This document shows, piece by piece, positions 7,845 through 59,812 of a stretch of DNA of 64,000 bases. The notes under the pieces were generated by a model. It was not told where the DNA came from, searched no databases, and saw only the letters and a program-made list of their open reading frames with translations. The position numbers were made by a program, and so were the translations under genes. Location: NCBI GenBank assembly GCA_002412935.1, contig DHWA01000013.1, positions 6,954-70,953 on the forward strand, given 5' to 3'. The stretch is from Patescibacteria group bacterium UBA5194. Its GTDB lineage: Bacteria; Patescibacteriota; Gracilibacteria; BD1-5; UBA6164. Numbering within the stretch: position 1 is the stretch's first letter; the number at the start of each line of letters is the position of its first letter.

Positions 7845-7938
7845 TGTCATTCTGAGGCTTTTACGAAGAATCCCTTAAGCATTTTTTTATGATATAATCC
7901 TAGTTTAAGGGATTCTTAATTTCATTTAGTATAATACA
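7845..7938. mobile_element. TGTCAT-family MITE-like palindromic element, right arm decayed
   Basis: Left arm is TGTCATTCTGAGGCTTTTACGAAGAATCCCTTAAG. The right arm TTAAGGGATTCTTAATTTCATTTAGTATAATACA is a degraded inverted copy. Confidence 0.6.
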
Positions 7939-7945
7939 ATTTAGT

Positions 7946-8264
7946 CTTACTTTTGAATCCAAAAGTAGCAAAAGATTTAAGGGGACGTCGTTCCCCTTAA
8001 AAACCCCTGAAGCGTTTCCCGGTTTCTGGGTTCATATCACAAATTATGTTTTTATTTAAGTCATAGTTTTACCTTTCAATTGACCACTTAGTGAAAATAA
8101 GGACTTTTATTTATTATAAAATTTAACTTACTATATTGGTAAACTTATAGAAATATGGGGGTTTGGGGGGCGAGACGATAGTGAGTACTTACAGAAAGCA
8201 CAAAACACTAATTCTGAAATTCGAGCCCCCAAATCTTTTGCTTACTTTTGGATTCAAAAGTAAG
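7946..8264. mobile_element. second MITE-like element (about 319 bp) with about 39-bp terminal inverted repeats and a GC-rich core
   Basis: Left TIR is CTTACTTTTGAATCCAAAAGTAGCAAAAGATTTAAGGGG (7946-7984). The right TIR (8226-8264) is its near-perfect reverse complement. Each TIR holds its own 8-bp hairpin. The core contains G/C runs that are unusual for this genome. Confidence 0.6.
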
Positions 8265-8385
8265 AAGTAATTGAATTATCTAAAATAAACTTAAATTTTA
8301 ATTTAAACTAAATTATTTATAATAAGAATTTACAAAAATAATAATATAGATAAAATAAAATCTCAAATACTTAAAAAATCCTCTT

Positions 8386-10113
8386 ATGAAAAAACCAGAA
8401 AAAAACAAAAAATGAAACCTATTAAATCTACTTAAACCATATACCTGGCTTATAATATGAATACTTGTACTTACTATCCTAAGTAATGGTTTAAATCTTA
8501 CGATTCCAAAAATTATATCATCATCTATTGATGCCTATACAAAATGAAATTTAAATCTATATATAACTATTATAGAATTTTTTGTAATATCTGTTTTTAT
8601 ATTTTTGTTCACTTATATGCAAAATATTATGCAGGTTTATACTTCTGAAATAGTAGCAAAAGATCTGAGAGAAAAACTTATAAAAAAAATCTCACTTCAA
8701 GATTATAATTATATCCAGACTGTGAGTCCTTCAAAACTACTTACAAACCTGACTTCTGATGTTGACTCAGTAAAATCATTTGTCTCTCAGGCTATCGCTT
8801 CAATTATATCTTCTATTTTTTTGATAATCTGAGCAAGTGTGCTTCTTATTATGATAGATTGGCAACTTGCTTTAGCTGTCCTTAGTATAGTCCCTATAAT
8901 CTGAGGTACTTTTGCTTTTATCCTTTCTAAAGTTAGTAAACTATTCAAGATGACCCAAGAAACTATTGACTGGTTAAATAGAATTATAAATGAAAGTATC
9001 CTAGGATCAGCTCTGATTAGACTTCTCAACTCTCAAACTTTTGAATATAAAAAATTTATAGAAGCAAATGAAAAATCAAAAGAAATCTGATTTGCAATCT
9101 TGGGATTTTTCGCAACTCTTATTCCGATAATAATGTTTTTCTCAAACCTTGCAATTTTGATAATTTTGGTACTTTGAGGACATTTTGTAATCCTTGGAAC
9201 TATGAGTCTTGGTAATTTTGCAGCATTTAATGCTTACTTATCAATCCTTATCTTCCCTATCATAATAATCTGATTTATGAGTACTGTTATAGCTCAAGCA
9301 TCTGCTTCTTATGGTCGTATTTTGGAAGTACTTAATTCCGAAGAAGAAAAAGACGAATGAACTATAGTAAAAAAACTAAATTGAGATATAAGTATGGAAA
9401 ATATTGGTTTAAATTTCTGAGATAAATGTGTACTAAGAAATATCAATTTTCAAATAAAACCAAAAACAAGAACTGCAATAATAGGACCAACTGCAGCAGG
9501 AAAAACTCAGCTTCTAAATATATTGACTGGTCTAATAAAACCAAGTACTTGATTAATCAAGTATGACTCAAATAATCTAAATCAATATGATAAAAAATCA
9601 TTTTACGAACAAATTGGATTAGTATTTCAAGACAGTAATCTTTTCAATCTATCTCTTAGAGAAAATATAGCATTTAGTGATACTGTAAAAGATATAGACA
9701 TAAAAAAAGCTATAGATACCGCAGAACTTAGAGATTTGATAGACTCTCTACCAAATTGATTAGATACAATAGTTTCAGAAAGATGAACTAGTCTATCAGG
9801 ATGACAAAAACAAAGAATTATGCTAGCTAGAGCACTAGCTGTAAATCCAAAAATACTTCTACTAGATGATTTCACTGCTAGACTTGATGTAAAAACTGAG
9901 AAAAAGATTCTAGATAATGTAAGAGAAAATTACCCTGAAATTACTCTTATATCTGTAACCCAGAAAATAGAACCAATAAAAGATTATGATACTATAATAT
10001 TATTGATGGAATGAGAAATATTAGCAATTTGAAAACACGAAGAACTTATAAAAACATCTCCAGAATATATCCAAATTTTTAATTCACAATTAAGTACAAA
10101 CAATGAATACTAA
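8386..10113 (+). CDS. ABC exporter, fused permease/ATPase (MsbA/MdlB type)
   Basis: 575 aa. Six-helix TMD. Walker A GPTAAGKT, signature LSGGQKQR, Walker B ILLLDD. Joins track ORFs 8605-8832 and 9820-10014. Confidence 0.85.
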
Positions 10114-11881: not shown

Positions 11882-11916
11882 TGTCATACTGAATGAAACG
11901 AAGTATCCCTTTAACA
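11882..11916. repeat. solo left arm of a TGTCAT-family element
   Basis: TGTCATACTGAATGAAACGAAGTATCCCTTTAA sits 10 nt after the ABC stop codon. No matching right arm nearby. Confidence 0.5.
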
Positions 11917-13115: not shown

Positions 13116-15437
13116 ATGCCCTACTCAGAATCAGATACAAGAGCAAAATATATAGACCCTCAACTTAAAAATAGTAACTGGGAAGAAATAAGTATTATAA
13201 GAGAATACTATTTTACTGACTGAAGAAAAGCACTTTGATGAAAAAGATGAAAAAGAAAATTTGCTGATTATATACTGACTTTCAAATGAGTAAAACTTGC
13301 AATCATAGAAGCTAAAAAAGAAGAATTAGACCCAACAGAATGACTAGAACAAGTTAAAGAATACTGTAAAATCCTTAATTTGAGATTTGTTTATTCTACA
13401 AATTGAAAAAAGATTTATGAATTTGATTTAGAAACTTGAAAAGGAGATTTTGTAGATAAGTACCCTGCTCCAGAAGAACTATATAATAAAGTTTACTCAG
13501 AAAGAAATCTTGCAAAAGAAACTCTTCTAAGTGAACCTTTTTTATTGTCTGATAAAAAACCTAGATATTATCAAGAAATAGCTATAAATAAGACTATGGA
13601 AGCTATTTGAAACTGAGAAAATAGGATTTTACTAACTCTAGCTACTTGAACTTGAAAAACTGTTATAGCTTTTCAAACTGTTTATAAACTTTTCAATGCT
13701 AGATGGTCAAAAGATGGTATTTGAGTAAGAAGACCTAGAATATTATTTTTAGCAGATAGAAATATACTTGTAGACCAAGCAATGAATACTTTTAATCCAC
13801 TTGAAAAAGATATATTAAAAATCAATTGAGTTGAAATCAAAAAAAGATGATGAAAAGTCCCTATGAATGCAAATATTTTCTTTGCTATTTATCAAGCTTT
13901 GGTTTGATGAGTAGATGAAGAAAATCCAGATGAAGTAATTGAAGCATACTATAACAGATATCCAAAAGACTTTTTTGATATGATAATTATAGATGAATGT
14001 CATAGAGGCTGAGCTAGAGAAGATTGAAACTGGTCAGAAATATTAAAATACTTTGATAGTGCAATTCATCTATGACTTACAGCAACACCAAAAAGAGATG
14101 ACAATATAGATACATATAGATATTTTTGAAAACCTATTTATGAATACAGTTTAAAAGCTTGAATAGATGATTGATTTTTAACACCTTTTAAAATAAAAAG
14201 AATCAAGTTAAATATAGATGAACTAGTTTTAAATACTTGAGACCAGATAATAGAATGAACAGCTAAAAAAGATGTTTACTATACAAAAGATATGGAAAGA
14301 GAGATTATAATAGATGAAAGGTCTGATTTAATAGCTCAAACTATTTTACAACAAATCAATAAGATGGATAAAACCATAGTATTTTGTGTAGATCAAAGCC
14401 ATGCACTTAGAATAAGAGATAGTATAAATAAATATAAAACAGTTAAAGACTCTGATTATTGTGTAAGAGTTACAAGTAATGAATGAGAGATATGAAGAAC
14501 TTATTTAGAAAGATTTCAAGATAATGATAAAGATATACCAGTTATTCTTACAAGTTCACAAATGTTAACAACTTGAGTAGATGCCTTAAATGTAAGAAAT
14601 ATAGTACTTGTAAGGAATATTTGAAGCATAGTTGAGTATAAACAAATTATTTGAAGATGAACTCGTATATTTGACTGAAAAGATTATTTTACTATTCTTG
14701 ATTTTGTATGAGCTACAAATGATTTCAAAGATGAAGTTTGGGATTGATGACCAGAAGATGATGATAATTGTCATTCTGAACTTGTTTCAGAATCATCAAA
14801 ATGTAAAAATACTAATTATGAATCTGAAATAAATTCGCAGTGACAAGAAAAAGAAAAAAGATTATATGTTAAATTATGAGATAGTAGAGAAGTAAAAGTA
14901 ATAGATATAGAAACTAGATACCTTGACCCAATTACTTGAAAACACTTGAGTTCAGAAGACTTTTTAAAGAAGATAATTTGAGATTTACCAACTTTTTACA
15001 AAGATGAACATCAATTAAGAGAATTATGGAGTAATCCAGAAACTAGAGATGAATTATTGTATAAATTATCTCAAATATGACTTGATACAGAGCAATTAGA
15101 TGACTTAAAGAGAATATTTGAAGCTGAGGACTCAGATATATTTGATGTACTTGCTCACTTGTCTTTTGATAGTGATATAAAGTACAGGTCTGAAAGGTCT
15201 ATTTATTGAGAAGAAATAGTTGATAATTACGAAAGTATTAAAGCTCGTGAATTTTTAGAATTTTTACTTACTTTGTATGTGAAAAATTGAATTTTAGAGT
15301 TTAGAAAGGATAAATTAGCAAGTAAAATAGCTTTGTTTAATAAATGACAATCAAGAGAGATAGCAAGTGAATTTGGTTGAATTGAAGAGCTTAAAAATGC
15401 TTATTATGAATTGCAAAGGAGTTTATATGTTAAGTAA
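13116..15437 (+). CDS. hsdR: type I restriction enzyme R subunit
   Basis: 773 aa. N-terminal nuclease region, helicase motif I LATGTGKT, motif II DECHRG, TATP, QMLTTGVD, and an EcoEI-type C-terminal region. Confidence 0.9.
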
Positions 15438-15441
15438 ATAA
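15343..15441 (+). repeat. 99-bp direct repeat, copy 1 (authentic 3' end of hsdR)
   Basis: 98/99 identical to 16260-16358. Confidence 0.85.
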
Positions 15442-15442
15442 T

Positions 15443-16072
15443 ATGCTTGTATTTATTGATGAAAGTTGAGATAGTTGATTTAAATTTAATAAATGAAGTA
15501 GTGAAATATTTACTATTATTTTAGTTGTATTTAATGAAAATGATGAGGCAAAAGCTTGTGATACAAGAATTGAATTATTAAAAAGAGAAATATTTGGAGA
15601 TATAAATGAAGAATTTCATTTTAAAAGAAATTCAGATAATGTAAGAAAACAATTTTTTGAAGCAATGATTCCATATAGCTTTTTCTATTATTGATTTGTT
15701 TTAAATAAAAAAAAGTTATATTGAGAATGATTTAGAAGTAAAGAATCATTTTATAAAATATTAAGTTGATATATATTTGAAAATGCAAAGGAAAAATTGG
15801 ATAATGCAAAAATAATTATTGATAAAAATTGAAATAACGAATTTAGAAATAGTTTAGCAAAATACCTAAAAACAAAGATGAATAATAGTAATATAAAAAG
15901 AATAAAAGAAGTAAAAATGCAGGATTCACATAAAAATAATTTATTACAATTAGCTGATTATGTTGCATCTTGATTAAATCGTCTATATAATACTTGAAAA
16001 AATAGGAGTGAATATGATTACATAAAAAAAATCTCTTCAAAAGAGATTTATGTTCAAATTTGGCCTAAATAA
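15443..16072 (+). CDS. DUF3800 family protein (paralog A)
   Basis: 209 aa. Starts MLVFIDESGDSG (DUF3800 DESG motif). C-terminal LLQLADYVA motif. Confidence 0.7.
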
Positions 16073-16079
16073 TTGGAGA

Positions 16080-16157
16080 ATCCTACTCTATCCAAATTAT
16101 ACCAGAAAGGTAAGGTGTGGAACGCACAAGCGATAAACGCTACAGTTCGAGTAGGAT
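16080..16157. other. GC-enriched structured element of unknown function
   Basis: 9-bp closing stem ATCCTACTC / GAGTAGGAT encloses sub-hairpins such as AGCGATAAACGCT. Lies in the 3' flank of the DUF3800-A cassette. Does not fold as a tRNA. Confidence 0.35.
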
Positions 16158-16259
16158 ACAATTCCACTAGAATTATAATTTAAAATGTAATAAAAGTCAA
16201 ATTATTATTTTACACTATAAAAATAATAATTATGAAGAAATAGAAAAAAATATTTAATG

Positions 16260-16358
16260 AATGACAATCAAGAGAGATAGCAAGTGAATTTGGTTGAATT
16301 GAAGAGCTTAAAAATGCTTATTATGAGTTGCAAAGGAGTTTATATGTTAAGTAAATAA
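16260..16358 (+). repeat. 99-bp direct repeat, copy 2 (orphan duplicate of the hsdR 3' end)
   Basis: One mismatch against 15343-15441. Not preceded by an hsdR reading frame. Confidence 0.85.
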
Positions 16359-16366
16359 GATAAAGT

Positions 16367-17074
16367 ATGATTGAAAATAAAAATATTTATAACATTTATC
16401 TTGATGAAAGCAGTATTGATAATCCTAAAAATCATTTTATGGTAATAGGATGAATTTTTATGCAAAGAAATTTAAGAGATGAAATAAAAAATAAAATAAA
16501 AGATTTAAGAAAAAAACATGATTTTTATCCAGAATTAAAATGGACAAAATTAAACAAAAAAAATATCCCCTTTGCTAAAGACATAATAGATTTATTTTTT
16601 AGTTATTCAAAAGATGATTTACAATTTCATTGTATAGTTGTTGATAAGACATTAGTTGCTTACGATGTTTATCATTCTGAAGATAAAGAATTAGCATTTT
16701 ACAAGTTTATTTATCAATTACTACAAAATAAATTTAAAAATGACGGCATATATTACTTATTTTTAGATTACAAGCAAAATAGTGATAAAAATAGACTAAA
16801 AGAATTAGAAAAATTTTTATCAATTATAGCTGAAAAAAAATATCATAATACAGAAATAAAACATATTCAATCATATTGTTCAAAAGAAGTACAACTTATA
16901 CAATTAGCAGATTTTTTTACATGAGCAGTATGATACATAAAAAATTGATTATGAGTTTCTGAAGCTAAAAAAGAAATTGTTAATTATATTGCAGAAAAAT
17001 TAAACAAACAAAATTTAGATTTTAAATCTAAGAGAGAAGAAAAAAAATTTAATATCTTTCAAATTAATTTATAA
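16367..17074 (+). CDS. DUF3800 family protein (paralog B)
   Basis: 235 aa. IYLDESS motif near the N-terminus and LIQLADFFTGAV near the C-terminus. Contains the longest track ORF, 16460-16924. Confidence 0.7.
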
Positions 17075-17083
17075 AATGAAAAT

Positions 17084-17545
17084 ATGCTAGAAACTACTCC
17101 GTGATTACTTATAAAATGAGAAGAAATTCATTATCTAGAAAAGTTTAAAGATATTTTTAAGGATGATAATAAAATTATACTTCCAGAGAAGAACAATAAG
17201 CCTGTATTAATTTTTACTAATAAAGAAACTTCAATTTATCATATATGGAGATGATGATGATATGCCTGACTGAAAGAAGATGAATTTAATTTTAATGATC
17301 CACAATTTTATAGAAGAGCCCAAAGAATATTATGGATTAAATACTTATTAGAAAATCCTCAAATAAGACATATTTATAGAGATAAAAATAATTGATACTT
17401 ATGTTTTGTTTCGAATGAACTTGAATATAGTGTTGTTATAAAAGAAGTTAAAACTAGTTTTATGCTTATTACTGCATACCATACATATAATACATATTGA
17501 TACATGAGTAATGAAAAAAGATTTGAAAGAGTTTATTCAATATAA
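17084..17545 (+). CDS. hypothetical protein (153 aa), defense-island context
   Basis: Code-25 ORF starting 10 nt after DUF3800-B. I recognise no motif. Confidence 0.45.
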
Positions 17546-17577
17546 AAGAGGTTGATGAATGTCCTTCACAACCTCTT
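17546..17577 (+). terminator. stem-loop after the 17084-17545 gene
   Basis: 9-bp stem AAGAGGTTG / CAACCTCTT begins right after the stop. No clear T-run, so termination is uncertain. Confidence 0.35.
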
Positions 17578-17737
17578 AAAACAGAGTACTGGGAGAATAT
17601 CTTGCGATATATACTATGAAGTATACTCCCTTATGTAATTAACAGTATACTCTAATTATCCATTATTACAAATATGCCTTCATTAGGGCACTTAAGTAAG
17701 TAAAAATATAAACAAAATAAATATAAAAAGAGCTTAA

Positions 17738-17762
17738 TTGTACAAAAAATTTGTACAAAAAA
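17738..17762 (+). promoter_or_regulatory. tandem TTGTACAAAAAA x2 (palindromic TGTACA cores), possible operator
   Basis: Two exact 12-mers with 13-nt spacing, about 48 nt upstream of the HEPN gene ATG. Confidence 0.3.
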
Positions 17763-17809
17763 TAGATATTTTGGCTTTAAATAAGCAATACTAGTATTAA
17801 TTAATTGAT

Positions 17810-18601
17810 ATGGATAAACAAACTCAAATGAAAGTTTGATATAGAAAAGAAATTTGCGATAAACATGATTGGAGAATCAAACATATATGAAATTTGGAAT
17901 CAGAGCTCGAAAAAGTACCTGGAAATGATAAAACATTTGATTGGGAAGTATGAAGTATTTTTGTTGCATCAGAACAATTTATTTTCGATAGAAAAAGGAT
18001 TGGTTTAACAAAACCAGAGATGACAGCAGTTTATATCAATATATCAAATAATCATTTTCAAGAATCAAGAAAAATGTTATTTTGAATCAAAAAAGATAAT
18101 ACTTGATTCTATTATTTTGAATGAAATTGATTTGATTTATTAGAAAATATAATAGTTTCAACAGTTTTTGCAGTTTCTGCATTAGAAGTATTTTTTAACC
18201 AATTTTTAATTAATAGTAATGATAATGATATACTAGTAACTACACTTAATAAGGAATGAAAAAAAATATGATTATTAAAAAAAGATTTAGAATGGTTATG
18301 AATTGAAGAAAAAATATTAGTCATTTTGCCTTTAATCTTTAAAACACAAAATAGTGATATGCAAAAAATATCATCAAAATTAAAACAACTTAATAAATTA
18401 AGAAACAGAATAATTCATCTTAAAAGTATAGATATAAAAAATACTACAGATATAAAAACCCCATCAACAATTCGGAAACAATTATTTGACCAAACTAAAG
18501 ATAATCCTGCTTTTATATCTAAAGAAATCATAAAATTTTTTTATGATCAATCTAAAAATGAATATCCTAGATGGCTTAGATTATTACCTTTTAAAAAATA
18601 A
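17810..18601 (+). CDS. HEPN-motif protein (263 aa)
   Basis: Code-25 ORF. R-x4-H motif RNRIIH at 18401-18418 sits in the context LNKLRNRIIHLK. The stop overlaps the ATG of the RT gene (TAATG). Confidence 0.55.
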
Positions 18602-20787
18602 TGAATATAAACACTGAAATAACTCTAAATGATATAAGAGAAATATTATTAAAATATAGTTTTGAGAATAATGAAAAATATTATTATTATTCAAGAAAAA
18701 ACAATATCTGAAACTTAATGTATGATCATTTCTTTAAGAGATTATACCACATTTTTTCTGATGTTTCATTAACAGATGATGATGAATGAGTCAAAGAGTT
18801 CATAAAAGCTATTAAATATTGTAATACTGATTATTTGTATGATATATTTGATGTAAAAGCTAATTTAAACTTCTCTGAAAGAAATTATAGGATTACAAAT
18901 TTTTATAATGTAATTCTATATGAAATCTATGTAAATAAAATTTTTAAACAATTAGCATATCTATCACATAAAAATAATTTAACAAATTATTTGATATTAG
19001 ATAAATATTTCTGATATTTTTCTAGTGTAAACTATTCTATAGATTCAGAAAATAATATATCATCATTAGATTACCAACATTATGATGTAAATTGGATATT
19101 ATTTGAAGAGAAAAAGAAAGAACTTTTGAAAGGTAATAACGAATATATTGAAACTGATATAAAATGATTTTATGATAATATAAATCATGAAATTTTGATT
19201 GAAAAATTAAAATATATTTTTCATAAGTATTGAAATGAAAATATTGATAATTTTTTATATATATTTTCTAACATATTATACAAAGTAAACTGATATAAAA
19301 AATCTTGAATTCCTCAGTGAGTTATTGCATCAGATATAATTGCTAATCTTTTTATTTGGTTAATATTATTTAATGATAAAGATTTATATGATTTTAAACA
19401 AGAAAATTGATTTTATAGTTTATATTGATTAAAATGTATAAATTATAATGATGATTTTATTTTTTGTGGTAATAATTTAGATACTATTTTTAATAAAGAA
19501 ATTAAAAAAATATTTAAAAACAATAGTTTAACTTTGAGCTTAGAAAAAACCACTTGAATATTAGATTCTTTTAGTTATAAATTTTATGATGAAATAGATT
19601 ATAATAAAATTATTAGTAATGATAAGATTGAAATTACAAAATTAAAAAATTTATTTATAACTGAATTAGAAAAAAATATAGATAAAATAGATATAAAATT
19701 ATTGAAAAGAAATTTTAAATGGATTCATAATATTAAAAGTGCAAAACCAACTGTAAAAAAATCATTTGTGAAATGAATATTTAAAATATTATTTGAAGAT
19801 ATTGATTGAAAAAAGAAATATGAAAAAATAAAAAAAATTTATCTTTTACTTGTTATATCACCAAGCAATTTTGTATATTTAATAATTATATTAGAGGAAT
19901 TTTTTCAAGAGAAGTATAATAAATCTTTTGAAAAATTATTGCTTCAAAAAATATTTATTCATTATAATTACTATGTTACAGATTCATTATTAGTTAAATT
20001 TTATAGTGACTTAAACAACTCTTACCATAATCTAGGCTACAAAGAACTAAAATCATTTTTATTTAATTTAATAAATAAAAATAATAATAAAGCTATTAAA
20101 TCTTTTTTAGATAATGATAAGAAACCTTTAGATTTAATAATTAAAGATAACGGTTTGATATGATTACATAACCTAATATATGGAAATAATGATATTAAAC
20201 GATTTAAAGAAAATATATTGTGAATAAAACTATATTCATTATTCTGAATAAACATTAACTATGATAACATTAACTCATTTTTTGAGAGAAATTGAAATGA
20301 CAAAATTATAAAAAATGTTAAATTAAAACTAAATCATATCATTGATGATTTGATAATAATAAAAAACATATCTCCAAATTTTTACTTAAAAAATCCTTCT
20401 TTTATTGCTGACCTATATTCGGTTTTAAACATATTATTAACTTTATTATTTTTTATTATTGATAATAAAATTATTGAAGTAAAGATAGATTGAGGAAATG
20501 AGGAAGGTTTTATTCAAACAAAAAAAGATAAGATTGAAAACAAATTTATTAAAGTTTGATTAAGAAAATATATAAATGACTTTGATACTAATCATATAAG
20601 TATGTTATATTATATTGCTAAAAAAAGAGCAATTTATAACCATAAAGAGATAGATATTGATAAAGATATAAATTTTTTAGTTTATAAAAAAAACAATGAT
20701 TTAAATACTTTTTATAATTGAATTTCAAGTCTGATAATCTATATTTTAAATTTAATAGATAAAGAAGTATTAAGTAATAAAATTTAA
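18601..20787 (+). CDS. AbiA-like reverse transcriptase with C-terminal HEPN motif
   Basis: 728 aa. RT motifs TDIKGFYDNINHE and GIPQGVIASDIIANLFI. Catalytic YNDD at 19444-19455. C-terminal R-x4-H (KRAIYNH) at 20626-20643. Confidence 0.75.
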
Positions 20788-20848
20788 AATAATCTTTACT
20801 TTAAGCCAAAAATCAATATACTACTAAAGATAAATAATAATATAAAAT

Positions 20849-22048
20849 ATGCCCTACCCAATAAAAAAGCTTTGAGAAATAACAATATTAATTACAAAAT
20901 GATCTACTCCAACTTCTTATTGATTTAAATATTTGAATAGTTGAGTAAGTTTTATTAAAATTGAAAATATCTCAAATTGAAAAATTATAAAAGATTCAAT
21001 TCATTGTTTTATTTCGGAAGAAGCAAATATATTTCAAAAAAGAAGTATTTTAAATGAGTGAGATTTATTAATATCAATAGCTTGAACAATATGAACTGTA
21101 GCAGTTGTTAATAATAATATTCTTCCAGCAAATACAAATCAAGCCTTAGCAATTGTAAGATGATATAATCAGTATACAACTTCAAATTATTTACAATTTG
21201 TATTATCATCAAATCTTTCTAAAGATTTTAAAGATAAAGCAAGATGAGGAGCTTTACAGAATATATCATTAGAAGATATAAAAAACATTCCAATCCCCCT
21301 ACCCCCACTCCCAACCCAAAAACTCATAGTTCAAAAACTAGATGAATCATTTGAAAAAATAGATAAAAGTATAGAAATCACAAAAAAAAATTTAGAAAAT
21401 CTAGAACAACTAAATAAAAGTGTTTTAGAAGAAGTTTTTAAAAAGTGAGAATATGATATTAAAACTATTGATGATATTTCTCATAATGTTCAATATTGAT
21501 ATACTTGAAAAACAATTGAAAAGTGAAATTATAAGTATTTAAGAATTACAGATATACAAGATAACAACATAATTTGGGCTAATGTTCCTTATGTTGATAT
21601 CACTGAAAAAGAATCTAATAAATATAAATTAAACAAGTGAGATATTGTTTTTGCAAGAACATGAGCAACTGTTTGAAAGTCTTGTTTAATAGATGAAGTT
21701 TGAGTTGGTAATGTATTTGCTTCCTATTTGATAAGAATTATTTGAAAACAAAATCTAGTGAATCCAAATTTTATGCAATATTTCTTTTATAGTAAAAATT
21801 ATTGGGAGCAAATATGACTTGATGTTGTTTGAGCTGCTCAACCAAATTTTAATTGAACAAAACTAAAGCAAGTAAAAATCCCACTTCCACCACTTCCAAA
21901 ACAAAAAGAAATAGTTACATATTTAGATCAAATATTTGAAAAAAATAAATCTCTAAAAAGTGAGTATGAAAGAAAATTAAAAGATTTAGAAGAACTAAAA
22001 CAGAGCTTGTTGAAAGAAGCCTTTGAATGAAAATTGGTAAAAGAATAA
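20849..22048 (+). CDS. hsdS: type I restriction-modification specificity subunit
   Basis: 399 aa. Two target-recognition halves, each followed by conserved IP(I/L)PLPPLP(T/K)Q and coiled-coil spacers. Confidence 0.85.
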
Positions 22049-22105
22049 TTTGTAGAAATATATATTTTGTATATAATACGAATATATTATAATTTATAAA
22101 ACAAT

Positions 22106-23116
22106 ATGAAAGAATTAAATATAAAAGAAAATATTACTGAATTTTTACTTTATAAAACTTCAAATGGAGATATAAAAGTAGAAGTTTTTTTAAAAGATGA
22201 AAATATTTGGTTATCTCAAAAGAAAATTTGAGAATTATTTAATATAGATAGAAGTGTAATAACAAAACATATTAAAAATATTTTTGAAACAGAAGAATTA
22301 GAGAAAAATTCAGTATGTGCAAATTTTGCACATACTGCTGAAGATTGAAAAATTTATAACACAAATTTTTATAATCTTGATGCTATTATTGCAATTTGAT
22401 ATAGAGTAAACAGTAAGAGAGCAACTGATTTTCGTATTTGGTCAAATAAAATCTTAAAAGAATATATAATAAAATGATACTCAATGGATGTGGAAAAATT
22501 AAAAAATCCAAATAATCCATTTTGAAAAGATTACTTTGAAGAACAATTAGAAATAATCAGAGATATCAGAAGTAGTGAAAGAAGATTTTATCAAAAAATT
22601 ACTGATATTTATTCTAGTTGTTCTATTGATTATGATAAAAACTCAGAAATTACAAAAACATTTTTTGCAACGGTACAAAATAAATTGCATTGGGCAATAG
22701 TCTGAAAAACTGCTGCTGAAATAGTTTATTCAAGAGCTAATCATAAAGAAAATAAAATGTGATTAACATCTTGGAAAAATTCTCCAAATTGAAAAATAAG
22801 AAAAATAGATGTAAGTATTGCAAAAAATTATTTAGATGAAAAAGAATTAAAACCATTAAATAGAATTGTAACAATGTATCTTGATTATGCTGAACTACAA
22901 GCTGAAAATCATAAAGCAATGACAATGTTAGATTGGGTATGAAAATTAGATAGTTTTTTAAAATTTAATGAAAAAAATATTTTAGAAAATTCTTGAAAAG
23001 TTACAACTGAAATAGCTAAAAGTTTTGCTGAAAATGAATTTGAAAAATATAAACTAATTCAAGATAAAACATATTTATCAGACTTTGATAATGAAATTAA
23101 AAAACTAAATTTATAA
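22106..23116 (+). CDS. RhuM-family protein
   Basis: 336 aa. Segments NLDAIIAIGYRVNSKRATDFRIW and ERRFYQKITDIY are typical of RhuM proteins, which commonly sit inside type I R-M operons. Confidence 0.7.
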
Positions 23117-23132
23117 ACTTATTTAAACACTT

Positions 23133-24557
23133 ATGAAACAAAAAATAGCAAGAATAAAAGATGTACTTCGTACTGATTCATGAATTTCTTGAGCAATGTG
23201 ATATACTGAACAAGTTTCGTGGATACTTTTTTTGAAGTTCCTTGACGATTATGAACAAAGAGAGTCTGATAATGCTTTGCTTGATTGAAAAGAATATAAG
23301 TATTTACTAGAAGAAAAATACAGATGGAGTATTTGGATAAAACAACAAAAATGATATATTGCATGAGATGATTTAAAAGACTTTGTTAATAACAACCTTT
23401 TTCCTTATTTGAAGTCTTTTAGAAATATAACTGATGATTATCATTCTATAAAGTATAAAATTTGAGAAATTTTCTTTTTTATCAATAACAAAATAGAAGA
23501 TTGAAACAATATTAAAGAAGTAGTTGATTTAGTTGATTGACTAAGCTTTCAAAAACAAGAAGATTTATTTGACCTTTCAAATGTCTATGAAGATTTATTG
23601 AAAGATATGTGAAATGCTTGATGAAATAATTGAGAATTTTATACTCCTAGAAGTATCATAAAAATAATGGTAGATAGTGTAGATCCAAAAATATGACAAA
23701 CTATATATGACCCTGCAGCTTGAAGTTGTTGATTTTTGATTGAAGCATTTAATCATATAAATACACAAGAAAAAACAGATAAACAATTAGAGTTTTTACA
23801 TAATCAAACTTTATTCTGAAATGAAAAAACCCCTCTAGCTTATGTAATGTGAGTTATGAATATGATACTTCACAGTATCAGTAATCCAAATATTAAAAAA
23901 ACAGATACATTAGCTCAAAATATTAAATCATTTCAAGAGAAAGATAGATATGATGTTATTCTTGCAAATCCTCCTTTTGGTTGAAAAATAAAATCTCAAG
24001 TACAAATAAACTTTCCAATTAGAACAAATGCAACAGAAATGCTTTTTTTACAACATATATTGAAGAGTGTAAAATTATGAGGTAAAGTATGAATCATTGT
24101 ACCTGAATGAGTTTTATTTAATTCTTGAAGTGCTTTTTGAGAAGTTAAGAAATGGCTTTTAGAAGATTTTAATCTTCATAGCATAGTAAGTCTTCCTGCT
24201 TGAGTATTCCTACCTTATGCCTGAGTTAAAACAAATGTAATTTTCTTTAATAGAGAATGAAAAACAAGTGATATATGGTATTATGAAATAGATTTAGGAA
24301 GAACTCTTACAAAAAATAAGCCTATAACTTATGATGATATAAAACATATTCCAGCGATGCTCCACAAAAGAGAAGTTTGACCAAATTCTTGGATTGTAAA
24401 AATAGAAGACATAAAAGATTATGACCTATCAGCAAAAAATCCAAACAAAGCAAAAGAAAAAGCACTCAGAACACCAAAAGAGATATTTGAAGAATTAAAA
24501 GAAAACGATAAAGTTATAAATAGTTTACTTGGAGAATTAAATGAGATTTTGAAATAA
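23133..24557 (+). CDS. hsdM: type I restriction-modification DNA methyltransferase subunit
   Basis: 474 aa. HsdM N-terminal domain, AdoMet motif DPAAGSCGF, and catalytic NPPFG with the Gly encoded by TGA. Confidence 0.9.
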
Positions 24558-24564
24558 TAGATTT

Positions 24565-24592
24565 AAAGAAGTATGTAAAAATACTTCTTTTT
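24565..24592 (+). terminator. rho-independent terminator after hsdM
   Basis: 10-bp stem AAAGAAGTAT / ATACTTCTTT, 6-nt loop, then TT. Confidence 0.6.
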
Positions 24593-24671
24593 ACTCCCCT
24601 CAAAAATCCATAATTAAATTTGCAAAATTTTATTATTGTATATAATAAGTATATGAAAATATAATTTATTT

Positions 24672-24700
24672 TTGACTTTATACCTAATTTGGAATATACT
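24672..24700 (+). promoter_or_regulatory. sigma70-like promoter candidate, possibly giving a leaderless transcript
   Basis: TTGACT, 17 nt, TATACT. The -10 ends 5 nt before ATG 24705. Confidence 0.3.
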
Positions 24701-43354: not shown

Positions 43355-43459
43355 TGTCATTCCCTAGAAATAGGGAATCTTCCTTATATTGCATCTAATA
43401 TTATAATCATAGACATTTTTAATACAAGGTAGATTATCGGGTCAAGCCCGATAATGACA
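43355..43459. mobile_element. TGTCAT-family element with non-identical (hybrid) arms
   Basis: Left arm is TGTCATTCCCTAGAAATAGGGAATCTTCC. Right arm is TAGATTATCGGGTCAAGCCCGATAATGACA. Intergenic, between yidC and rnpA. Confidence 0.7.
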
Positions 43460-47246: not shown

Positions 47247-47349
47247 TGTCATACTCGTGCTCACGTGCCCCTTGTGGGTATGACACGAGTATCCAGTGAA
47301 CTAAATATTGCTTGTACACTAGATTATCGGGTCAAGCCCGATAATGACA
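47247..47349. mobile_element. TGTCAT-family element with hybrid arms
   Basis: Left arm is TGTCATACTCGTG...CACGAGTATCC. Right arm is TAGATTATCGGGTCAAGCCCGATAATGACA. Lies in the ftsA/ftsE divergent intergenic region. Confidence 0.7.
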
Positions 47350-49661: not shown

Positions 49662-49769
49662 TGTCATCCTGAGAGTAACGAAGGATCCCTTGAATACGGT
49701 ATTTTCTAAGTTTCATTATAAATATAGTAAACCGTGTCTAAGGGATTCTTCATTTCATTCAGAATGACA
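49662..49769. mobile_element. complete TGTCAT-family element (intergenic)
   Basis: TGTCATCCTGAGAGTAACGAAGGATCCCTTGAA...CTAAGGGATTCTTCATTTCATTCAGAATGACA, with about 32-nt inverted arms. Confidence 0.8.
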
Positions 49770-52369: not shown

Positions 52370-52509
52370 TGTCATTCCCGAGAAGTCGGGAATCTTCATT
52401 ATATTGTAGCTAAGAAATAGTGGATTAAATATTTTTTAATATTTTTAGTTCAGTTTTATTGATTGACTATTTTTATACAAAGTAGATTCCCGCCTTCGCG
52501 GGAATGACA
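52370..52509. mobile_element. complete TGTCAT-family element, CCCG-hairpin arm type
   Basis: TGTCATTCCCGAGAAGTCGGGAATCTTC...GTAGATTCCCGCCTTCGCGGGAATGACA. The left half is about 90 percent identical to 53999-54132. Confidence 0.8.
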
Positions 52510-52643: not shown

Positions 52644-52733
52644 TGTCATCCTGAATATAATGAAGGATCCCTTAAACTTGGTATTTTCACAAAACAATGT
52701 AAATGGATTCTTCGCAAAAGCTCTACAATGACA
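52644..52733. mobile_element. complete TGTCAT-family element (90 bp)
   Basis: TGTCATCCTGAATATAATGAAGGATCCCTTAA...GGATTCTTCGCAAAAGCTCTACAATGACA. Confidence 0.75.
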
Positions 52734-52762: not shown

Positions 52763-53989
52763 ATGAAAATCGCAATACTTCACGAAATGCTTATAAAACT
52801 TGGTTGAGCTGAAAAAGTTGTAGAAAAAATTGCTTCTATTTTTCCTGATGCTCCGATTTTTACTCTGATTTACGATGAAGAAAAAGTATGAAAAATATTT
52901 CCAAAAGATAAAGTAAAAGTAGCTTCATCTACTCAGAGAATTTATAATATTACAAAAAATCAAAGATTTTGTCTTCCTTTTATGCCTAGAGCTGTTGAAA
53001 GTCTTGATTTTTCAGATTATGATGTAGTTATTTGTTCTTCTTCTGGATTTGCACATTGAGCAATTACCAAACCAGAAACTAAATTTATCGTTTACTATCA
53101 TTCTCCTGCAAGATATCTATGGGATTGGACCAATGAATACAAAAAAGATATTGGTTTTGATAAGTGATTAAAATGATATATATTAAATAAATTATTTTTG
53201 AGTCTTAGAATGTGGGATGTAATTGCATCATCTAGAGTGGATATAAATCTAGCAAATAGTAAAAATTCTGCTTCTAGAGTACAAAAATATTACAGAAAAA
53301 CTTGTGAAATACTTTATCCTCCTATCGAAACAAAGAGATTTAAGAAAGAAATCAATAAAGTATGAGTTTTGGAAACTATACTGTCATCCTGAACGAATGT
53401 GAAGGATCCCTTAAGCAAGGTAATCACTAAAAAATCAAGTTCAAGGGATTCTTCGTTACTCTCAGAATGACAAACAGTAAATAATATAACATATTACATA
53501 ATTATATCAGCACTAACCGAATTTAAAAAAATAGAAATAGCAATAGAATGATTCAACAAAATGCCTGACAAAAATCTGGTTATAATTTGAGATTGAAATT
53601 ATAGAGAAACTTTGAAAAATAAAGTAAATTGAAATAATATAATTTTTACATGAGCTAGATACTCTGATGAACTTGTAGAGTTAGTTCAATGAAGTCTAGG
53701 GCTCATATTTCCATGAGAAGAAGATTTCTGAATAGTTCCAATTGAAGCAATGGCAGCAGGAAAACCTATCTTTGCATATGCTTGAGGATGATTACTTGAA
53801 ACTGTAATTGATAACAAAACTTGAAGCTTTTTCCAAGATAAGACTTGATATGATTTTGTCCCAAAATTTGCAGAATTTGATCAAAAAGTTAACTCATGAT
53901 TTTTTGACAAAAAATTTATAACAAAACATGCCCTAAAATTTGATGAATCTTTATTTGAGAAAAGGATTAAAGAGATTGTAAATTGATAA
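52763..53989 (+). CDS. GT4-family glycosyltransferase carrying a roughly 30-codon repeat-derived insertion
   Basis: 408 aa. EEDFGIVPIEAMAAGKPIFAY is the GT-B C-domain motif. The frame is uninterrupted through the inserted element. Confidence 0.8.
53382..53472. mobile_element. TGTCAT-family element inserted in frame in the glycosyltransferase CDS
   Basis: TGTCATCCTGAACGAATGTGAAGGATCCCTTAAGC...CAAGGGATTCTTCGTTACTCTCAGAATGACA. Translated as LSSGTNVKDPLSKVITKKSSSRDSSLLSEGQ. Confidence 0.75.
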
Positions 53990-53998: not shown

Positions 53999-54132
53999 TG
54001 TCATTCCCGAGAAATCGGGAATCTTCATTATATTGTAGCTAAGAAATAGTGAATTAATATTATTTTTAGATACTACTATTTATCTATTATTGTTATTATA
54101 CAAGGTAGATTCCCTTCTTCAAGGGAATGACA
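53999..54132. mobile_element. complete TGTCAT-family element, CCCG-hairpin arm type
   Basis: TGTCATTCCCGAGAAATCGGGAATCTTC...GGTAGATTCCCTTCTTCAAGGGAATGACA. Confidence 0.8.
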
Positions 54133-54181
54133 TACTTTTCTATTTTTATAATGCATTTCACGATGTGTATCATAGAGATTT

Positions 54182-54288
54182 TTAAGGGGGTAACTTCGCC
54201 GTAATACGAAGCACAATAAAAATAGTCTCATCAGCGAAGATTTACCCTCTTAAATTCTTTTTGCTACTTTTTGGAATCAAAAAGTAAG
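54182..54288. mobile_element. short relative of the 7946-8264 element
   Basis: TTAAGGGGGTAACTTCGCC...GCGAAGATTTACCCTCTTAA palindrome, followed by ATTCTTTTTGCTACTTTTTGGAATCAAAAAGTAAG, which resembles the right TIR of the 7946-8264 element. Confidence 0.5.
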
Positions 54289-54310
54289 AGATAAGTAAAT
54301 ACAATATAGT

Positions 54311-54386
54311 AAATGGATTGCTTCGAAAAAACTCGCAATGACAAAAAGTAAATACAAGGAAGATTCCCGCCTTCGCGGGAATGACA
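54311..54386. repeat. two solo right arms of TGTCAT-family elements
   Basis: AAATGGATTGCTTCGAAAAAACTCGCAATGACA (54311-54343) and GGAAGATTCCCGCCTTCGCGGGAATGACA (54358-54386). Confidence 0.65.
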
Positions 54387-55613: not shown

Positions 55614-55707
55614 TGTCATTGCGAGTTTTTACGAAGCAATTCAGAAATCATTGATTTAACAATAAAACACTATTTAAGGGATTCTTCGCTAATCGCTCAG
55701 AATGACA
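55614..55707. mobile_element. TGTCAT-family element with arms from two different subtypes
   Basis: Left arm TGTCATTGCGAGTTTTTACGAAGCAAT (GCAA type). Right arm TTAAGGGATTCTTCGCTAATCGCTCAGAATGACA (GGATCCC type). Confidence 0.7.
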
Positions 55708-57404: not shown

Positions 57405-57779
57405 TTTTAAATTTTCTTCTATTCTTCTTATTATTTGTTTATTGATTATATTATCATCATTATTTATCATCTCAATTAAATCAGAAAGTGTTAAAACTAT
57501 TAATTCTAAATTAGTAATAGCTTTTACTGTTGCAGTTCTAGCTTCTTCATTTAATAAAGCTATCTCTCAAAACATTTCTCAATCTGATAACTCAGCTATT
57601 TTATTTCAATTTATTTCAACTTCTACTATTCAAGATTTTATTATATATGATTTTCAATTAGACAATTCTCATTCATTAAAAACTACATCTCAACTATTAA
57701 AAGTCTCTACCTGAGCATAAGATAATATTTTTTCAACTACTTCATTATCAATTCAATCAAATATTTTTAAGTTAGCCAT
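57393..57779 (-). CDS. cyclic-nucleotide-binding domain protein
   Basis: 128 aa. GEMFGEIALLNEEARTATVKA is the cNMP phosphate-binding cassette. Its 3' end overlaps the convergent gene by 12 nt. Confidence 0.7.
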
Positions 57780-57810
57780 AAATTATAAATTAGGAGTTAA
57801 TGGTGGGTTT

Positions 57811-57831
57811 TCTGATTCTGCATTCTATTCT
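57811..57831. repeat. NNATTCT heptamer run (TCTGATTCTGCATTCTATTCT)
   Basis: Lies between the mutL stop and the cNMP-binding gene start. Confidence 0.4.
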
Positions 57832-57865
57832 AATATATTTCTCAAAAAAAAACAAGTAATTTATA

Positions 57866-59812
57866 TTATCTATCGTATTTTTTCTTCAAATCTTGTAGAG
57901 TTAATTCAGAAACAGAAGGTCTTCAATGTGGACAAGTTGAACTATATGACAAGACACTGTCATTAAGTAATTTATTCATCTCAAATAGATTTAATTTATT
58001 ACCGAATTTGATTGCTGATCTACAAGCTGTATAAGCACATATTTTATTTCTTACTTCCTCTAAATTCATAGATTTTCAAGTATTAAATTCTCATATATCA
58101 CTAATTATTCACAAAAAAATGTTTTTTATATCTTCTTTTTTAATAAAATTTGGAATAGCACTTAAAAGTACACTTGAAGTAGACAATATTTCAAAATCAA
58201 ATCCCATATCCAAAAAGATTTGTCTATATTGTGTCAATATCGAAATTTCTTTTCCAGTAAGATTTAAATTTTCTTGAATTAAAAGTTGTTGAGATTGTGT
58301 ATCTAGATCTTTTTTTATAAGTTTTTCATAAATTATTCTTTCTGCTAGTGCATGCTGATCAAGGATTATCAATTTATCATCTTTTTCAACAATTATATAA
58401 CTATTAAAAACTTGCCCTACTATTTTTCATAGAGATGTATAATGTAAATCAGAATTTACACCTAAATCACTTCAAGTAAAATCTTTTAAAAAATGTTTTG
58501 TAAACTCAATGGAATCTTTTATTGTATTTTGTGCTGGATTTGTAGATACATCTTTATATGGAGAATATGATTTGAATTTTGTTCCGGAACCTGTGTAATA
58601 TATATTATGTCATTCCCTTGAAGAAGGGAATCTTCATTGTATTGTTTCCTTTTGTCATTCACTATGTTGTCATTGCGATACTGCCAGAGTACAGGGAGTA
58701 CGAAGCAATCCATTCACTATATTGTTTCATGTTTTCTGGATTGCTTCGTTACTCTCGCAATGACAGTTTTCTTCTCAATTATCACTTTCATCTATATTAA
58801 CCAAACTACTATTTTCCAACTTACTCAAAATAGCATTATAAAAAGCTCTGTATATTTCTTGTTCTCTTGCAAACCTGATTTCTTGTTTTCTTGGATGTAC
58901 ATTTACATCGATTTCTTCGGGATTTATTTCTAAATTTAATATATATCCTGGAAAATTATTGTGTGGGATGAACCTACGATATGCTTCATTTATTGCTCTA
59001 TAAATAAGAGGTGAACTTATAATTCTCCCATTTACAAATATTGCTTGTCTATTTTTATTTAGAAAATGAATCTTTGGAGTTGAGATAAATCAATTTATAT
59101 TAAGTCATGAAAAAGAAAAATCTATACCTAACAAATTATTATAAAATTCTTCTCAATATATATTATAGATTCTTGTTTTTAAATCTTCATTTTCTTTGTA
59201 CTTAAAAATTATTTTTCAATTATTTACAAATTCAAATCAGATTTGTGGATGAGCAAGTGCAATATTATTTAGAAAATCACTTATGTGACTATATTCTGTT
59301 TTTTCTTTTTTAAGGTAGTTAATTCTTGCTGGAGTATTAAAAAATAATTCTTTAACAATTATTTTAGTTCATATGTTTATACTTTCTTCTTTTATATCTA
59401 ACTTTTCTCATCATATAACTTCTAAAGAGTATCATCCTTGTCATCCTGAACTTGATTCAGGATCTCTTGTTTTTGAAATTATCTTAAATTTTGAAACAGA
59501 TGATATAGACGCCAAAGCTTCTCACCTAAATCAAAAAGTCATAACTTTATGTAAATCTTCTAGATTTTTTATTTTTGAAGTAGTATGTTTTTCTGTAAGT
59601 ATAATTAAATCTTCTTTTTCTATTCCTACTCAATTATCACTTATAATTATCTCATCTATTCAACCTGAAGTGATTTCAACCTTTATACTAGTGCTTCAAG
59701 CATCTATACTATTTTCTACAAGTTCTTTAACTACTGAAACTGGTCTTTCAACTACTTCTCAAGCTGATATCTGATTTATAAGTATTTTATCTAGTTTAAT
59801 AATTTTTGACAT
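57866..59812 (-). CDS. mutL: DNA mismatch repair protein MutL with repeat-derived insertions
   Basis: 648 aa. Frame checked codon by codon. GHKL motifs VVKELVENSIDAG, DNGVGI, GFRGEAL. C-terminal domain ILDQHALAERIIYE and CPHGRP. Confidence 0.85.
58608..58765. mobile_element. composite of one solo arm, one arm fragment and one complete TGTCAT-family element inside the mutL linker
   Basis: TGTCAT starts at 58608, 58653 and 58668. The complete element 58668-58765 has arms TGTCATTGCGATACTGCC...ACGAAGCAATCC and GGATTGCTTCGTTACTCTCGCAATGACA. The whole stretch is translated in frame. Confidence 0.75.
59439..59466. repeat. solo TGTCAT-family arm inside the mutL N-terminal domain
   Basis: TGTCATCCTGAACTTGATTCAGGATCTC, read on the minus strand as RDPESSSGGQ. 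Confidence 0.5.

Follow-up and report, generated by a model that had tools for sequence, protein, structure and literature searches.

The 64,000-nucleotide stretch of DNA examined here, from Patescibacteria group bacterium UBA5194 (contig DHWA01000013.1, positions 6,954 to 70,953 of the forward strand), carries a family of short palindromic elements that begin with TGTCAT and end with ATGACA, and the question raised by this locus is what these elements are and how they are maintained. The whole 64-kb stretch is referred to below as the window, and positions are window coordinates. An initial annotation had regarded the elements as MITEs (miniature transposable elements with inverted repeats) mobilised in trans by a transposase. 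Here, we argue that the arms of these elements are probably hairpins of the Ssn-related motif (SRM) type, named after the small nuclease Ssn, and that they are paired as non-autonomous doublets, turned over in evolution and left at the least harmful sites. The sections that follow establish the identity of the motif, the structural constraint on the arms, the polymorphism between relatives, the in-frame position of some copies, and the fact that in other genomes such arms or doublets lie beside Ssn-type genes.

The repeat arms are conserved hairpins

The hexamer TGTCAT occurs 72 times in the window compared to 43.7 expected occurrences, and 72 was reached in 0 of 100 shuffles. To count arms, a descriptor consisting of GTCAT, a stem of at least 5 bp starting at the A, and ATC was run against first-order Markov shuffles as a control; the window gave 30 matches, and the shuffles gave a mean of 4.4 and a maximum of 10 (n = 100). 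About 27 of the 30 matches are true arms, and with two further, imperfect arms (55614 on the plus strand, which has ATT for ATC, and 52733 on the minus strand, which has a single stem mismatch) the total comes to about 29, of which 24 fall in 43.3-59.5 kb. The stem reaches at least 5 bp in 27 of the 29 arms. A repeat finder recovered the subfamilies independently, both as direct repeats (D1, D3, D6, D11, D12, D17) and as inverted repeats (I4, I9, I10, I14, I16, I20, I21). A copy was present at every position that the initial annotation had listed, and a solo arm at 14769 that was unlisted there was added. The description of the elements as GC-rich islands also held, with a G+C content of 45% for the arms and 25% for the window.

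Stems of unequal length fell out of register when whole arms were aligned with MAFFT, and a loop-trimmed, gap-free alignment was therefore used. Every arm follows one plan, namely TGTC, a hairpin whose first and last two bases are AT, and then C. TGTCAT and the closing AT are invariant in all 29 trimmed arms, and TGTCAT matches the 5' flank of the SRM, HGTCWY; the C directly after the palindrome is found in at least 90% of the 29 arms, with 55614 on the plus strand as the sole exception. The stems fall into four classes. Class A is ATTCCC-N8-GGGAAT; class B is ATYCTGAR...GAAGRAT followed by CCCTT; class C is ATTGCGAG...CGAAGCAAT followed by CCA; and class D is fully paired around a CTTGA loop (ATTATCGGG, ATCCTCGGG, ATTCCGGA, ATCCTGAA and ATTCTGAA). 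Standard pairs occupy 83.6% of the cells in the arm alignment compared to 62.1% in shuffles, and 50 cells are changed on both sides compared to 15.8 in shuffles, a number reached in 0 of 500. Covariation was seen in 6 of 8 stem pairs, and when the partner column was slid as a control, pairing dropped to 19-50%. In the arms, structure is what is conserved.

Most arms belong to inverted doublets with 30-90 nt between the paired arms. Because the segments next to the arms are likewise complementary, two folds are open to a doublet as single-stranded DNA (ssDNA), a pair of local hairpins or a single long one; the z-scores of the elements folded as ssDNA range from -1.9 to -9.3. The earlier description of units of 80-150 bp running from TGTCAT to ATGACA is correct for eleven doublets (81-150 bp) but does not cover a 158-bp composite, the half elements or the solo arms, and a decayed copy and a hairpin-less remnant occur as well. 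Stem types had been called interchangeable, and this was borne out by the four classes, which are freely mixed in single doublets (A/D at 43355-43459; C/B at 55614-55707).

The arms correspond to the Ssn-related motif

In the work of Chenal et al. (Nat Commun 2025; PMC11893778), SsnA is a 94-aa GIY-YIG protein of family cd10448, and the 28-nt Neisseria sequence NTS (CGTCATTCCCGCGMAVGCGGGAATCYRG), which contains dRS3 (ATTCCC-N8-GGGAAT), is bound and cut by SsnA as ssDNA only. The key base for binding is the C after the palindrome and the key bases for cutting are the three before it, with the cut in N. meningitidis placed 3 nt 5' of the NTS (PMC11893778). According to the same paper, SRMs flank 71% of ssn genes in many phyla and number more than 300 each in Rickettsia, Wolbachia and Neisseria; the NTS-ssnA-NTS arrangement resembles an insertion sequence (IS), and transposition by Ssn is offered there as a hypothesis only (PMC11893778). 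The invariant TGTCAT and the 3' C of the arms in the window are thus the positions reported as critical for SsnA cleavage and binding.

Exact dRS3 matches number 7 in the window compared to 0 expected, and they stand at both ends of the elements at 52370-52509 and 53999-54132 and at one end of those at 43355 and 58608. Two arms lie within 2-3 mismatches of the 28-nt NTS consensus, compared to 0 expected, and the published degenerate SRM expression is satisfied by 3 of the 29 arms, compared to 0 in 30 shuffles; the class B, class C and A+T-rich class D stems lie outside that expression. A relative carries TGTCATACTCGGGCTTGACCCGAGTATC, which is identical to the N. wadsworthii NTSvar except for the first base.

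The same arms are found in many other bacteria. A 31-nt class A pattern with 24 specified bases matched at least 109 genome stretches, and among the matches listed are Gracilibacteria, Peribacteria, Paceibacteria, Saccharibacteria, Devosia, Fibrobacter and Rickettsiales, as well as Ignavibacteria, Planctomycetota, Nitrospirales, Acidobacteria and other members of the Candidate Phyla Radiation (CPR). Doublets are frequent in loci from Rickettsiales, Devosia, Ignavibacteria and the CPR, but this does not apply to the Fibrobacter loci. In three contigs, two from Ignavibacteriaceae and one from Acidobacteriaceae (L034, L109 and L101), a small gene annotated as 'GIY-YIG nuclease family protein' is bracketed on both sides by TGTCATTCCC...GGGAATC arms. 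Furthermore, in two Patescibacteria contigs a TGTCAT...ATGACA doublet lies about 5-12 nt past the stop codon of a 95-114 aa Ssn-type GIY-YIG gene (L243, 4300-4385; L244, 4349-4455), and the 5' side of the gene is without an arm. The L243 doublet (TGTCATTGCGAG...CTCGCAATGACA) has the class C form, and the stems of the L244 doublet (ATTCTGGAG...ATAGAAT) are outside the four classes of the window.

Under the explanation that we favor, each arm would be an SRM (NTS or dRS3 in Neisseria), that is, an ssDNA hairpin with (T)GTC before it and C after it, and would be equivalent to the signal that elsewhere in bacteria is bound and cleaved by the small GIY-YIG nuclease Ssn. Inverted pairs of arms around a 30-90 nt spacer would form non-autonomous units comparable to the neisserial intergenic mosaic elements (NIMEs) of Neisseria and the Rickettsia palindromic elements (RPEs). 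Such units would be gained, lost and exchanged over evolutionary time, and selection would leave them beside stop codons, in leaders, and in permissive protein loops or linkers, where units within genes would be translated through since TGA encodes glycine.

Inverted doublets of this kind are also the hallmark of repetitive extragenic palindromic (REP) sequences and of their paired form, the REPINs, which are kept by a RAYT, a domesticated IS200/IS605-like tyrosine transposase. The window elements resemble REPINs in being inverted doublets of approximately 25-nt imperfect palindromes, in having many copies just past stop codons, and in folding as two hairpins or one long hairpin, and the analogy is drawn by the Ssn paper itself (PMC11893778). 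However, the arms in the window match the SRM/NTS motif, seven of them with an exact dRS3, and begin with a conserved TGTCA, and two like arms, which are the norm in REPINs, are often not found here. The 5' tetranucleotide GTAG/GTGG, which REPs reportedly carry (Nunvar et al. 2010), is absent, and no Y1 transposase was found among the scanned window proteins or in the Pfam lists of relatives. A RAYT-dependent origin is consequently regarded as very improbable.

Occupancy differs between relatives

The nearest named homologues are from Candidatus Gracilibacteria, and the closest genome found is the metagenome-assembled genome (MAG) LH_M95 (JAGXIW01), with 88% nucleotide identity over 20 kb. A 21-kb syntenic stretch of LH_M95 aligns at that identity to window positions 42-64 kb. 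Eight element loci are absent from LH_M95, namely 43355, 47247, 49662, 52370, 53999, 54300/54352 (counted once), 55614 and the solo arm at 59439, where LH_M95 is 18 nt shorter; LH_M95 likewise lacks the class A arm of the composite at 58608. These absent elements account for most of the larger gaps (at least 100 nt) of LH_M95 relative to the window. The elements at 43623 (decayed in LH_M95), 52644 and 53382 are common to both, and the MutL linker holds other arms in LH_M95. An apparent LH_M95-specific arm at L114 position 7031 was rejected as a chance match within dnaJ.

More distant relatives (72-74% identity) lack both the copy in the glycosyltransferase leader and the copy within the gene. 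At the latter site, the glycosyltransferase linker at 53382, a class C doublet is present in the JAEMOK assembly (L245) and none in L117 or L118, where the empty sites are too diverged to reveal the target. The JAEMOK assembly also has a class B doublet elsewhere in the spacer between pfkB and the glycosyltransferase gene, and full-length class B elements with 81% identity were found at non-syntenic sites in two other Gracilibacteria genomes.

The clearest comparison was obtained in the Elp3 gene. Most of 120 Elp3 homologues are 557-569 aa in length and are without the insert, and the site is empty in the Elp3 of LH_M95, which is 82% identical. An 85%-identical Elp3 is filled, with the same class D right arm as in the window and with other left arms (a degenerate one as well as a class A-like one), and a 74%-identical Elp3 has a shorter doublet. 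In the DNA, the empty allele reads CCAGGAAAAAGC directly followed by TGACAAAAC, and the window allele reads CCAGGAAAAAGT, then TTTTC TGTCATCC...GTCCGGAA, and then TGACAAAAC. The difference of 150 nt stops exactly before a TGACA that is common to the empty allele, with no duplication, at this single resolved site (n = 1); Elp3 is the only clean indel site, as the AT-rich intergenic empty sites in LH_M95 are not alignable to a single base. A breakpoint between TGTCA/TGACA and the hairpin was seen twice, in the Elp3 indel (the L110 junction) and in a remnant at 58653-58667, where it falls between TGTCA and TTCACTATGT.

Thus, the expectation that the repeats would occur outside the window and would differ in presence at orthologous loci was confirmed by arms and full elements in other genomes and by the comparisons to LH_M95, the Elp3 homologues, and L117 and L118. 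The accompanying suggestion of recent activity found weak support: there is turnover relative to an 88%-identical genome, but copies within one subfamily differ by 9-18%, and the organism as sampled elsewhere shows identical elements, with further assemblies at 100% identity, one at 99.05% whose MutL elements align gap-free, and no strain-level polymorphism among these 99-100% identical assemblies. Element turnover is real, but it is not demonstrably recent.

The empty sites also bear on whether the hairpins could be non-mobile cis-regulatory or structural motifs, such as terminators, mRNA stabilisers or protein-binding sites. The hairpins are stable, seven intergenic copies lie 6-39 nt from a stop codon, and one copy is in a conserved leader, all of which would suit such a role. 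Nevertheless, the polymorphism at orthologous sites and the empty sites largely refute it, and copies occur within coding sequences, other genomes have the same units at non-orthologous positions, the hairpins are not followed by a T-run, and the elements had no relevant Rfam match at the gathering threshold or at E up to 1. We therefore give this possibility very little credence.

Different arm classes were found at the same site in relatives at 3-4 sites: in Elp3 (the window and the homologue P0001), in the glycosyltransferase linker (of class B in both the window and LH_M95, of class C in L245) and in the MutL linker. As read from the sequences, this pattern points to either exchange between copies or repeated insertion beside resident arms. 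These cases, together with the chimeric arm pairs and the hairpin-less and half elements, could be accounted for without any dedicated enzyme, if the units were moved by recombination, whether homologous or illegitimate (as might follow natural transformation between related strains), and selection spared those at harmless sites; a nearby dprA gene suggests competence for DNA uptake. Recombination by itself, however, leaves the invariant flanking GTC and 3' C with covarying stems unexplained, and likewise the identity of arms across phyla and the tight linkage to Ssn-type genes elsewhere. It may add to an enzyme-dependent process instead of replacing it, and as a sufficient explanation it appears unlikely.

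Copies within genes are read in frame

Six loci were found in frame within coding sequences (CDSs), a feature that depends on the genetic code of the host. With the standard code the window contains 4 open reading frames (ORFs) of at least 150 aa, compared to 60 with TGA as a sense codon. In the Elp3 orthologue the TGA positions correspond to conserved glycines of solved Elp3 structures, which indicates genetic code 25. Neither the recoded TGA nor the in-frame loci had been recognised in the initial annotation; the copies are not all intergenic.

The doublet at 32857-33006, with both arms of class D, is in frame in the Elp3 CDS (31451-33274) and is absent from the 82%-identical orthologue; it forms an insert of 62 residues where the Methanocaldococcus structure 6iaz has 7. 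The class C doublet at 43623-43703 is in the rnpA CDS (43466-43915, minus strand), after profile position 67 of 109. The class B doublet at 53382-53472 is in the interdomain linker of a glycosyltransferase (CDS 52763-53989), between two Rossmann-like halves, and is nearly identical in LH_M95. The 158-bp composite at 58608-58765 is in the linker of MutL (CDS 57866-59812, minus strand), between the DNA_mis_repair and MutL_C domains, and consists of a class A left arm, the hairpin-less remnant TGTCATTCACTATGT at 58653, and a class C doublet with an enlarged left loop. Conserved domains are intact on either side of the insert in Elp3, the glycosyltransferase, RnpA and MutL. The remaining two loci are solo class D arms on the plus strand: the arm at 59439-59466 is in the ATPase domain of MutL, where the minus strand reads DPESSSGG, and the arm at 14769-14795, which has the loop CTTGT, is in an HsdR-like CDS (13116-15437) and is read as CHSELVSES. 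Other insert peptides encoded by in-gene elements are, for example, AIQKTGNNIVNGLLR and DSSLLSEGQ.

Each of the four full copies within genes has a single frame free of TAA and TAG, which is the one in use, and this frame contains 1-5 TGA codons, including the TGA of the ATGACA terminus. The in-gene copies stay translatable because TGA, which occurs in this terminus and in some stems, encodes glycine in the host; the standard code would close the used frames in Elp3, MutL, RnpA and the glycosyltransferase. Across the eleven doublets, 22 of 66 frames are open under code 25 compared to 10 of 66 under the standard code, so that about twice as many element frames are open with TGA as sense, and the three doublets without any open frame are all intergenic.

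The Elp3 loop equivalent to 32850-33010 also holds unrelated inserts in other Gracilibacteria homologues (P0004, P0005, P0077, P0084, P0086 and others), with peptides such as SPLLVGEGLGVR or PPNPL, and the loop is therefore a general insertion sink.

Search for an ssn gene and for a transposase

We infer that this genome encodes an Ssn, and that Ssn, a partner activity or ssDNA processing at hairpins drives the spread of the doublets; by analogy to Neisseria, the sites may modulate the processing of incoming single-stranded DNA. Several results weigh against the SRM explanation and its enzyme. Searches with tblastn, using GIY-YIG consensus queries, gave no hit in the window below E = 0.5. Hidden Markov models (HMMs) of the family, one based on 6 members and another on 120, were likewise negative for the window and for the Gracilibacteria loci when applied to ORFs from all six frames in which TGA counted as sense. 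There was no Ssn or GIY-YIG gene in the 6 kb beyond the window or in the Pfam lists of neighbouring assemblies, and none in the fetched Gracilibacteria loci of 8-21 kb. Among the best 120 of 7,822 relatives of a Patescibacteria Ssn-type protein, several are from Patescibacteria and none could be assigned to Gracilibacteria, and none of these 120 shows the W-for-G signature of a recoded genome. A metagenome scan with GGGAATCTNCNTTNTAT was too unspecific, with mostly random-looking matches, and the loci fetched from it were without a GIY-YIG gene. It should be noted that the roughly 70 kb of genome examined is too little to call ssn absent; the genome of this organism presumably measures about 1 Mb.

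Other points weigh against the SRM explanation as well. Only 3 of the 29 arms satisfy the SRM expression, and the rest are A+T-richer or internally mismatched. In N. meningitidis, an altered palindrome in which the hairpin is kept abolishes SsnA activity (PMC11893778), and given this sensitivity to stem changes, the four stem classes would need a tolerant enzyme or several enzymes. The clean indel boundary lies between the hairpin and TGACA, unlike the SsnA cut 3 nt 5' of the NTS, and transposition by Ssn has the status of a hypothesis (PMC11893778).

The classical MITE model, in which the elements are deletion derivatives of an IS moved in trans by a DDE or HUH transposase (IS630/Tc1, IS200/IS605 or similar), was examined along the same lines. 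The initial annotation was right that these are short palindromic elements that have no coding capacity and require a factor in trans, and their terminal inverted symmetry, their size of 81-158 bp and the differing occupancy between relatives all agree with MITEs; moreover, one insertion abuts a fixed pentanucleotide, TGACA, without duplication, as IS200/IS605 does at its target. The target-site duplications that had been anticipated were not found, however: flanking direct repeats of more than 2 nt occur at 0 of 12 doublets or composites, none is present at the filled/empty Elp3 pair, and no TA flanks were seen. No transposase, including Y1, was detected among the scanned window proteins or in the Pfam lists of syntenic relatives. 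The ends of the elements are symmetric hairpins and match no IS ends in the loci examined, whereas the ends of IS200/IS605 are asymmetric; the two arms of a doublet are often of unlike class, which is unexpected for derivatives of one IS; and the same 24-base arms occur in many phyla, where the linked gene, when seen, is GIY-YIG and not a transposase. Mobilisation by an IS200/IS605 TnpA or an IS630 transposase thus appears improbable.

A more specific variant of the Ssn-based explanation, which we put forward tentatively and hold to be considerably less probable than SRM doublets as such, is that the doublets are the non-autonomous side of a mobile element of an unrecognised kind, one that a GIY-YIG single-strand nuclease would drive and whose autonomous form would be 'SRM-ssn-SRM'. 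Such elements would move or be exchanged by way of ssDNA; they would be cut where TGTCA meets the hairpin and joined beside TGACA, without target duplication. If this were true, lineages in which TGA encodes glycine would give the elements access to coding sequences and hence to new protein loops.

Copies outside coding sequences

Apart from the in-frame loci, the SRM-type arms are located between genes, and most copies fall either 6-39 nt away from a stop codon or within divergent spacers, with seven intergenic copies beginning 6-39 nt from a stop codon. The class B doublet at 7845-7935, with an intact left arm (TGTCATTCTGAGGCTTTTACGAAGAATC) and a right arm decayed to ...AAGGGATTCTTAATTTCATTTAGTATAATAC, is 26 nt past the stop of an ArgH-like gene, and a solo class B arm on the plus strand (11882-11907) is 10 nt past the stop of an ABC transporter gene. 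The chimeric doublet at 43355-43459, with a class A left arm and a class D right arm, is between rnpA and yidC. The doublet at 47247-47349 is in the divergent spacer between ftsA and an ABC gene, and it combines a left stem of ATACTCGTG/CACGAGTAT around a 24-nt loop with a class D right arm. The class B doublet at 49662-49769 is 25 nt from a recO-like stop.

Several copies surround the glycosyltransferase gene. The class A doublet at 52370-52509, in the spacer between pfkB and the glycosyltransferase gene, has an exact dRS3 in both arms and a right arm with 2 mismatches to the Neisseria NTS consensus, and it is absent from LH_M95, L117 and L118. The class B/hybrid doublet at 52644-52733 is in the leader of the glycosyltransferase gene, after the conserved promoter-like TTGATTTATACTTAA; it is present in LH_M95 and absent from L117, L118 and L245. 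Past the gene, a class A doublet (53999-54132) begins 10 nt from the stop, and in LH_M95, where this doublet is absent, the glycosyltransferase gene and recR abut. Two right halves on the minus strand follow, one of class C (54300-54343, an arm with its subterminal segment) and one of class A (54352-54386), the arm of which conforms to the SRM expression and differs from the NTS consensus at 3 positions. Lastly, the chimeric doublet at 55614-55707, with a class C left arm and a class B right arm, is 6 nt past the stop of a NUDIX gene.

Genomic setting

The region 13116-31169 is a defence island with type I restriction-modification genes (HsdR, HsdS and HsdM), two DUF3800 proteins, a 728-aa protein with a reverse-transcriptase domain (18601-20787), Fic proteins, and two helix-turn-helix (HTH) + SocA/Panacea antitoxin-like proteins; it contains a single solo arm and no further arms. 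Two pairs of direct repeats in this region (15336-15444 and 16253-16361, 109 nt, 97%; 24489-24592 and 27084-27187, 104 nt, 90%) are duplicated 3' ends of hsdR and hsdM beside inserted defence genes, which suggests cassette insertions. The sole RNA gene detected in the window, a tRNA-Arg(CCG) on the minus strand (31262-31338), is just upstream of Elp3.

A non-coding stretch of about 110 nt at 8152-8262, upstream of an ABC transporter gene, is conserved, with a closing stem of GGGGG...CCCCC and the terminal hairpin CTTACTTTTGGATTCAAAAGTAAG. Over a 201-nt alignment (8100-8300) it is 84% identical to the Ca. Altimarinus contig DYHI01000009.1 (L041, 7388-7514), with a sharp fall outside the core. 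The stretch has no Rfam match and is a candidate small RNA or leader.

A gene for DprA (DNA_processg_A) is found approximately 6 kb past the 3' end of the window (L120, 2600-3673). Its proximity hints at uptake and processing of single-stranded DNA, which is the setting of Ssn in Neisseria.

Relation to known repeat families

The hairpin, its enzyme family, doublets bounded by dRS3 (NIMEs) and in-frame palindromic insertions (RPEs) are already known. With the SRM/NTS/dRS3 and Ssn system (PMC11893778) the window elements share the 5' (C/T)GTCAT, the imperfect palindrome and the 3' C, exact dRS3 in class A arms with 2-3 mismatches to the NTS consensus, and arms that are abundant, clustered, in both orientations and adjacent to Ssn-type genes in other genomes. 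They differ in that the host is a code-25 CPR bacterium, from a group that is unmentioned in the main text of that paper, in that four stem classes coexist here, mostly as short doublets, with several copies translated in genes, and in that no ssn gene was found in the 70 kb examined.

Similar to NIMEs, the elements have short spacers between inverted dRS3-type hairpins, a modular, mosaic make-up, and arrays of whole and half units, as at 53999-54386. NIMEs, reportedly defined as repeat segments bounded by dRS3 inverted repeats (Parkhill et al. 2000), are intergenic, whereas six loci are within CDSs here, arm classes extend beyond dRS3, and there is no sign of phage or IS110-type integration into arms.

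RPEs are palindromic units of several families that are found in frame in unrelated housekeeping genes, at structurally tolerant places (PMC10969869). The likeness to the window elements, drawn from their description, is that both are palindromic units of approximately 100-150 bp inserted in frame without destroying the gene, and the class A arm is found in Rickettsiales MAGs, often in doublet form; the difference is that translation of the inserts depends here on TGA as a sense codon. The ends of RPEs, of which there are ten families, may be SRM-like, which we take as a lead.

REP, bacterial interspersed mosaic element (BIME) and REPIN systems are similar in their inverted hairpin pairs at gene ends, which are non-autonomous and tied to one small repeat-flanked enzyme gene, and different in their 5' signature, in their enzyme (HUH/Y1 and not GIY-YIG), and in that the arms of one unit are often unlike here. 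Bacterial MITEs such as Correia elements have the same size, terminal inverted repeats, lack of coding capacity, and occupancy that varies between strains or species; they differ from the window elements in that the latter have no target-site duplication, have ends that match no IS in the loci examined, and conserve a hairpin structure and a few flanking bases, not a terminal inverted repeat bound by a transposase.

Implications

Several features of this locus are new: the group to which the host belongs, four arm classes that coexist and combine freely, NIME-like, RPE-like and SRM features in one family, and in-gene copies that depend on the reassignment of a stop codon. Filled and empty alleles, together with the cases of different arms at the same site, provide substrates for testing whether Ssn only cuts incoming DNA or also moves elements. 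The Ssn/SRM system, described only in 2025, is hereby extended into the Candidate Phyla Radiation, and the findings suggest that NIME-like doublets, RPE-like in-frame insertions and SRM hairpins share one hairpin module.

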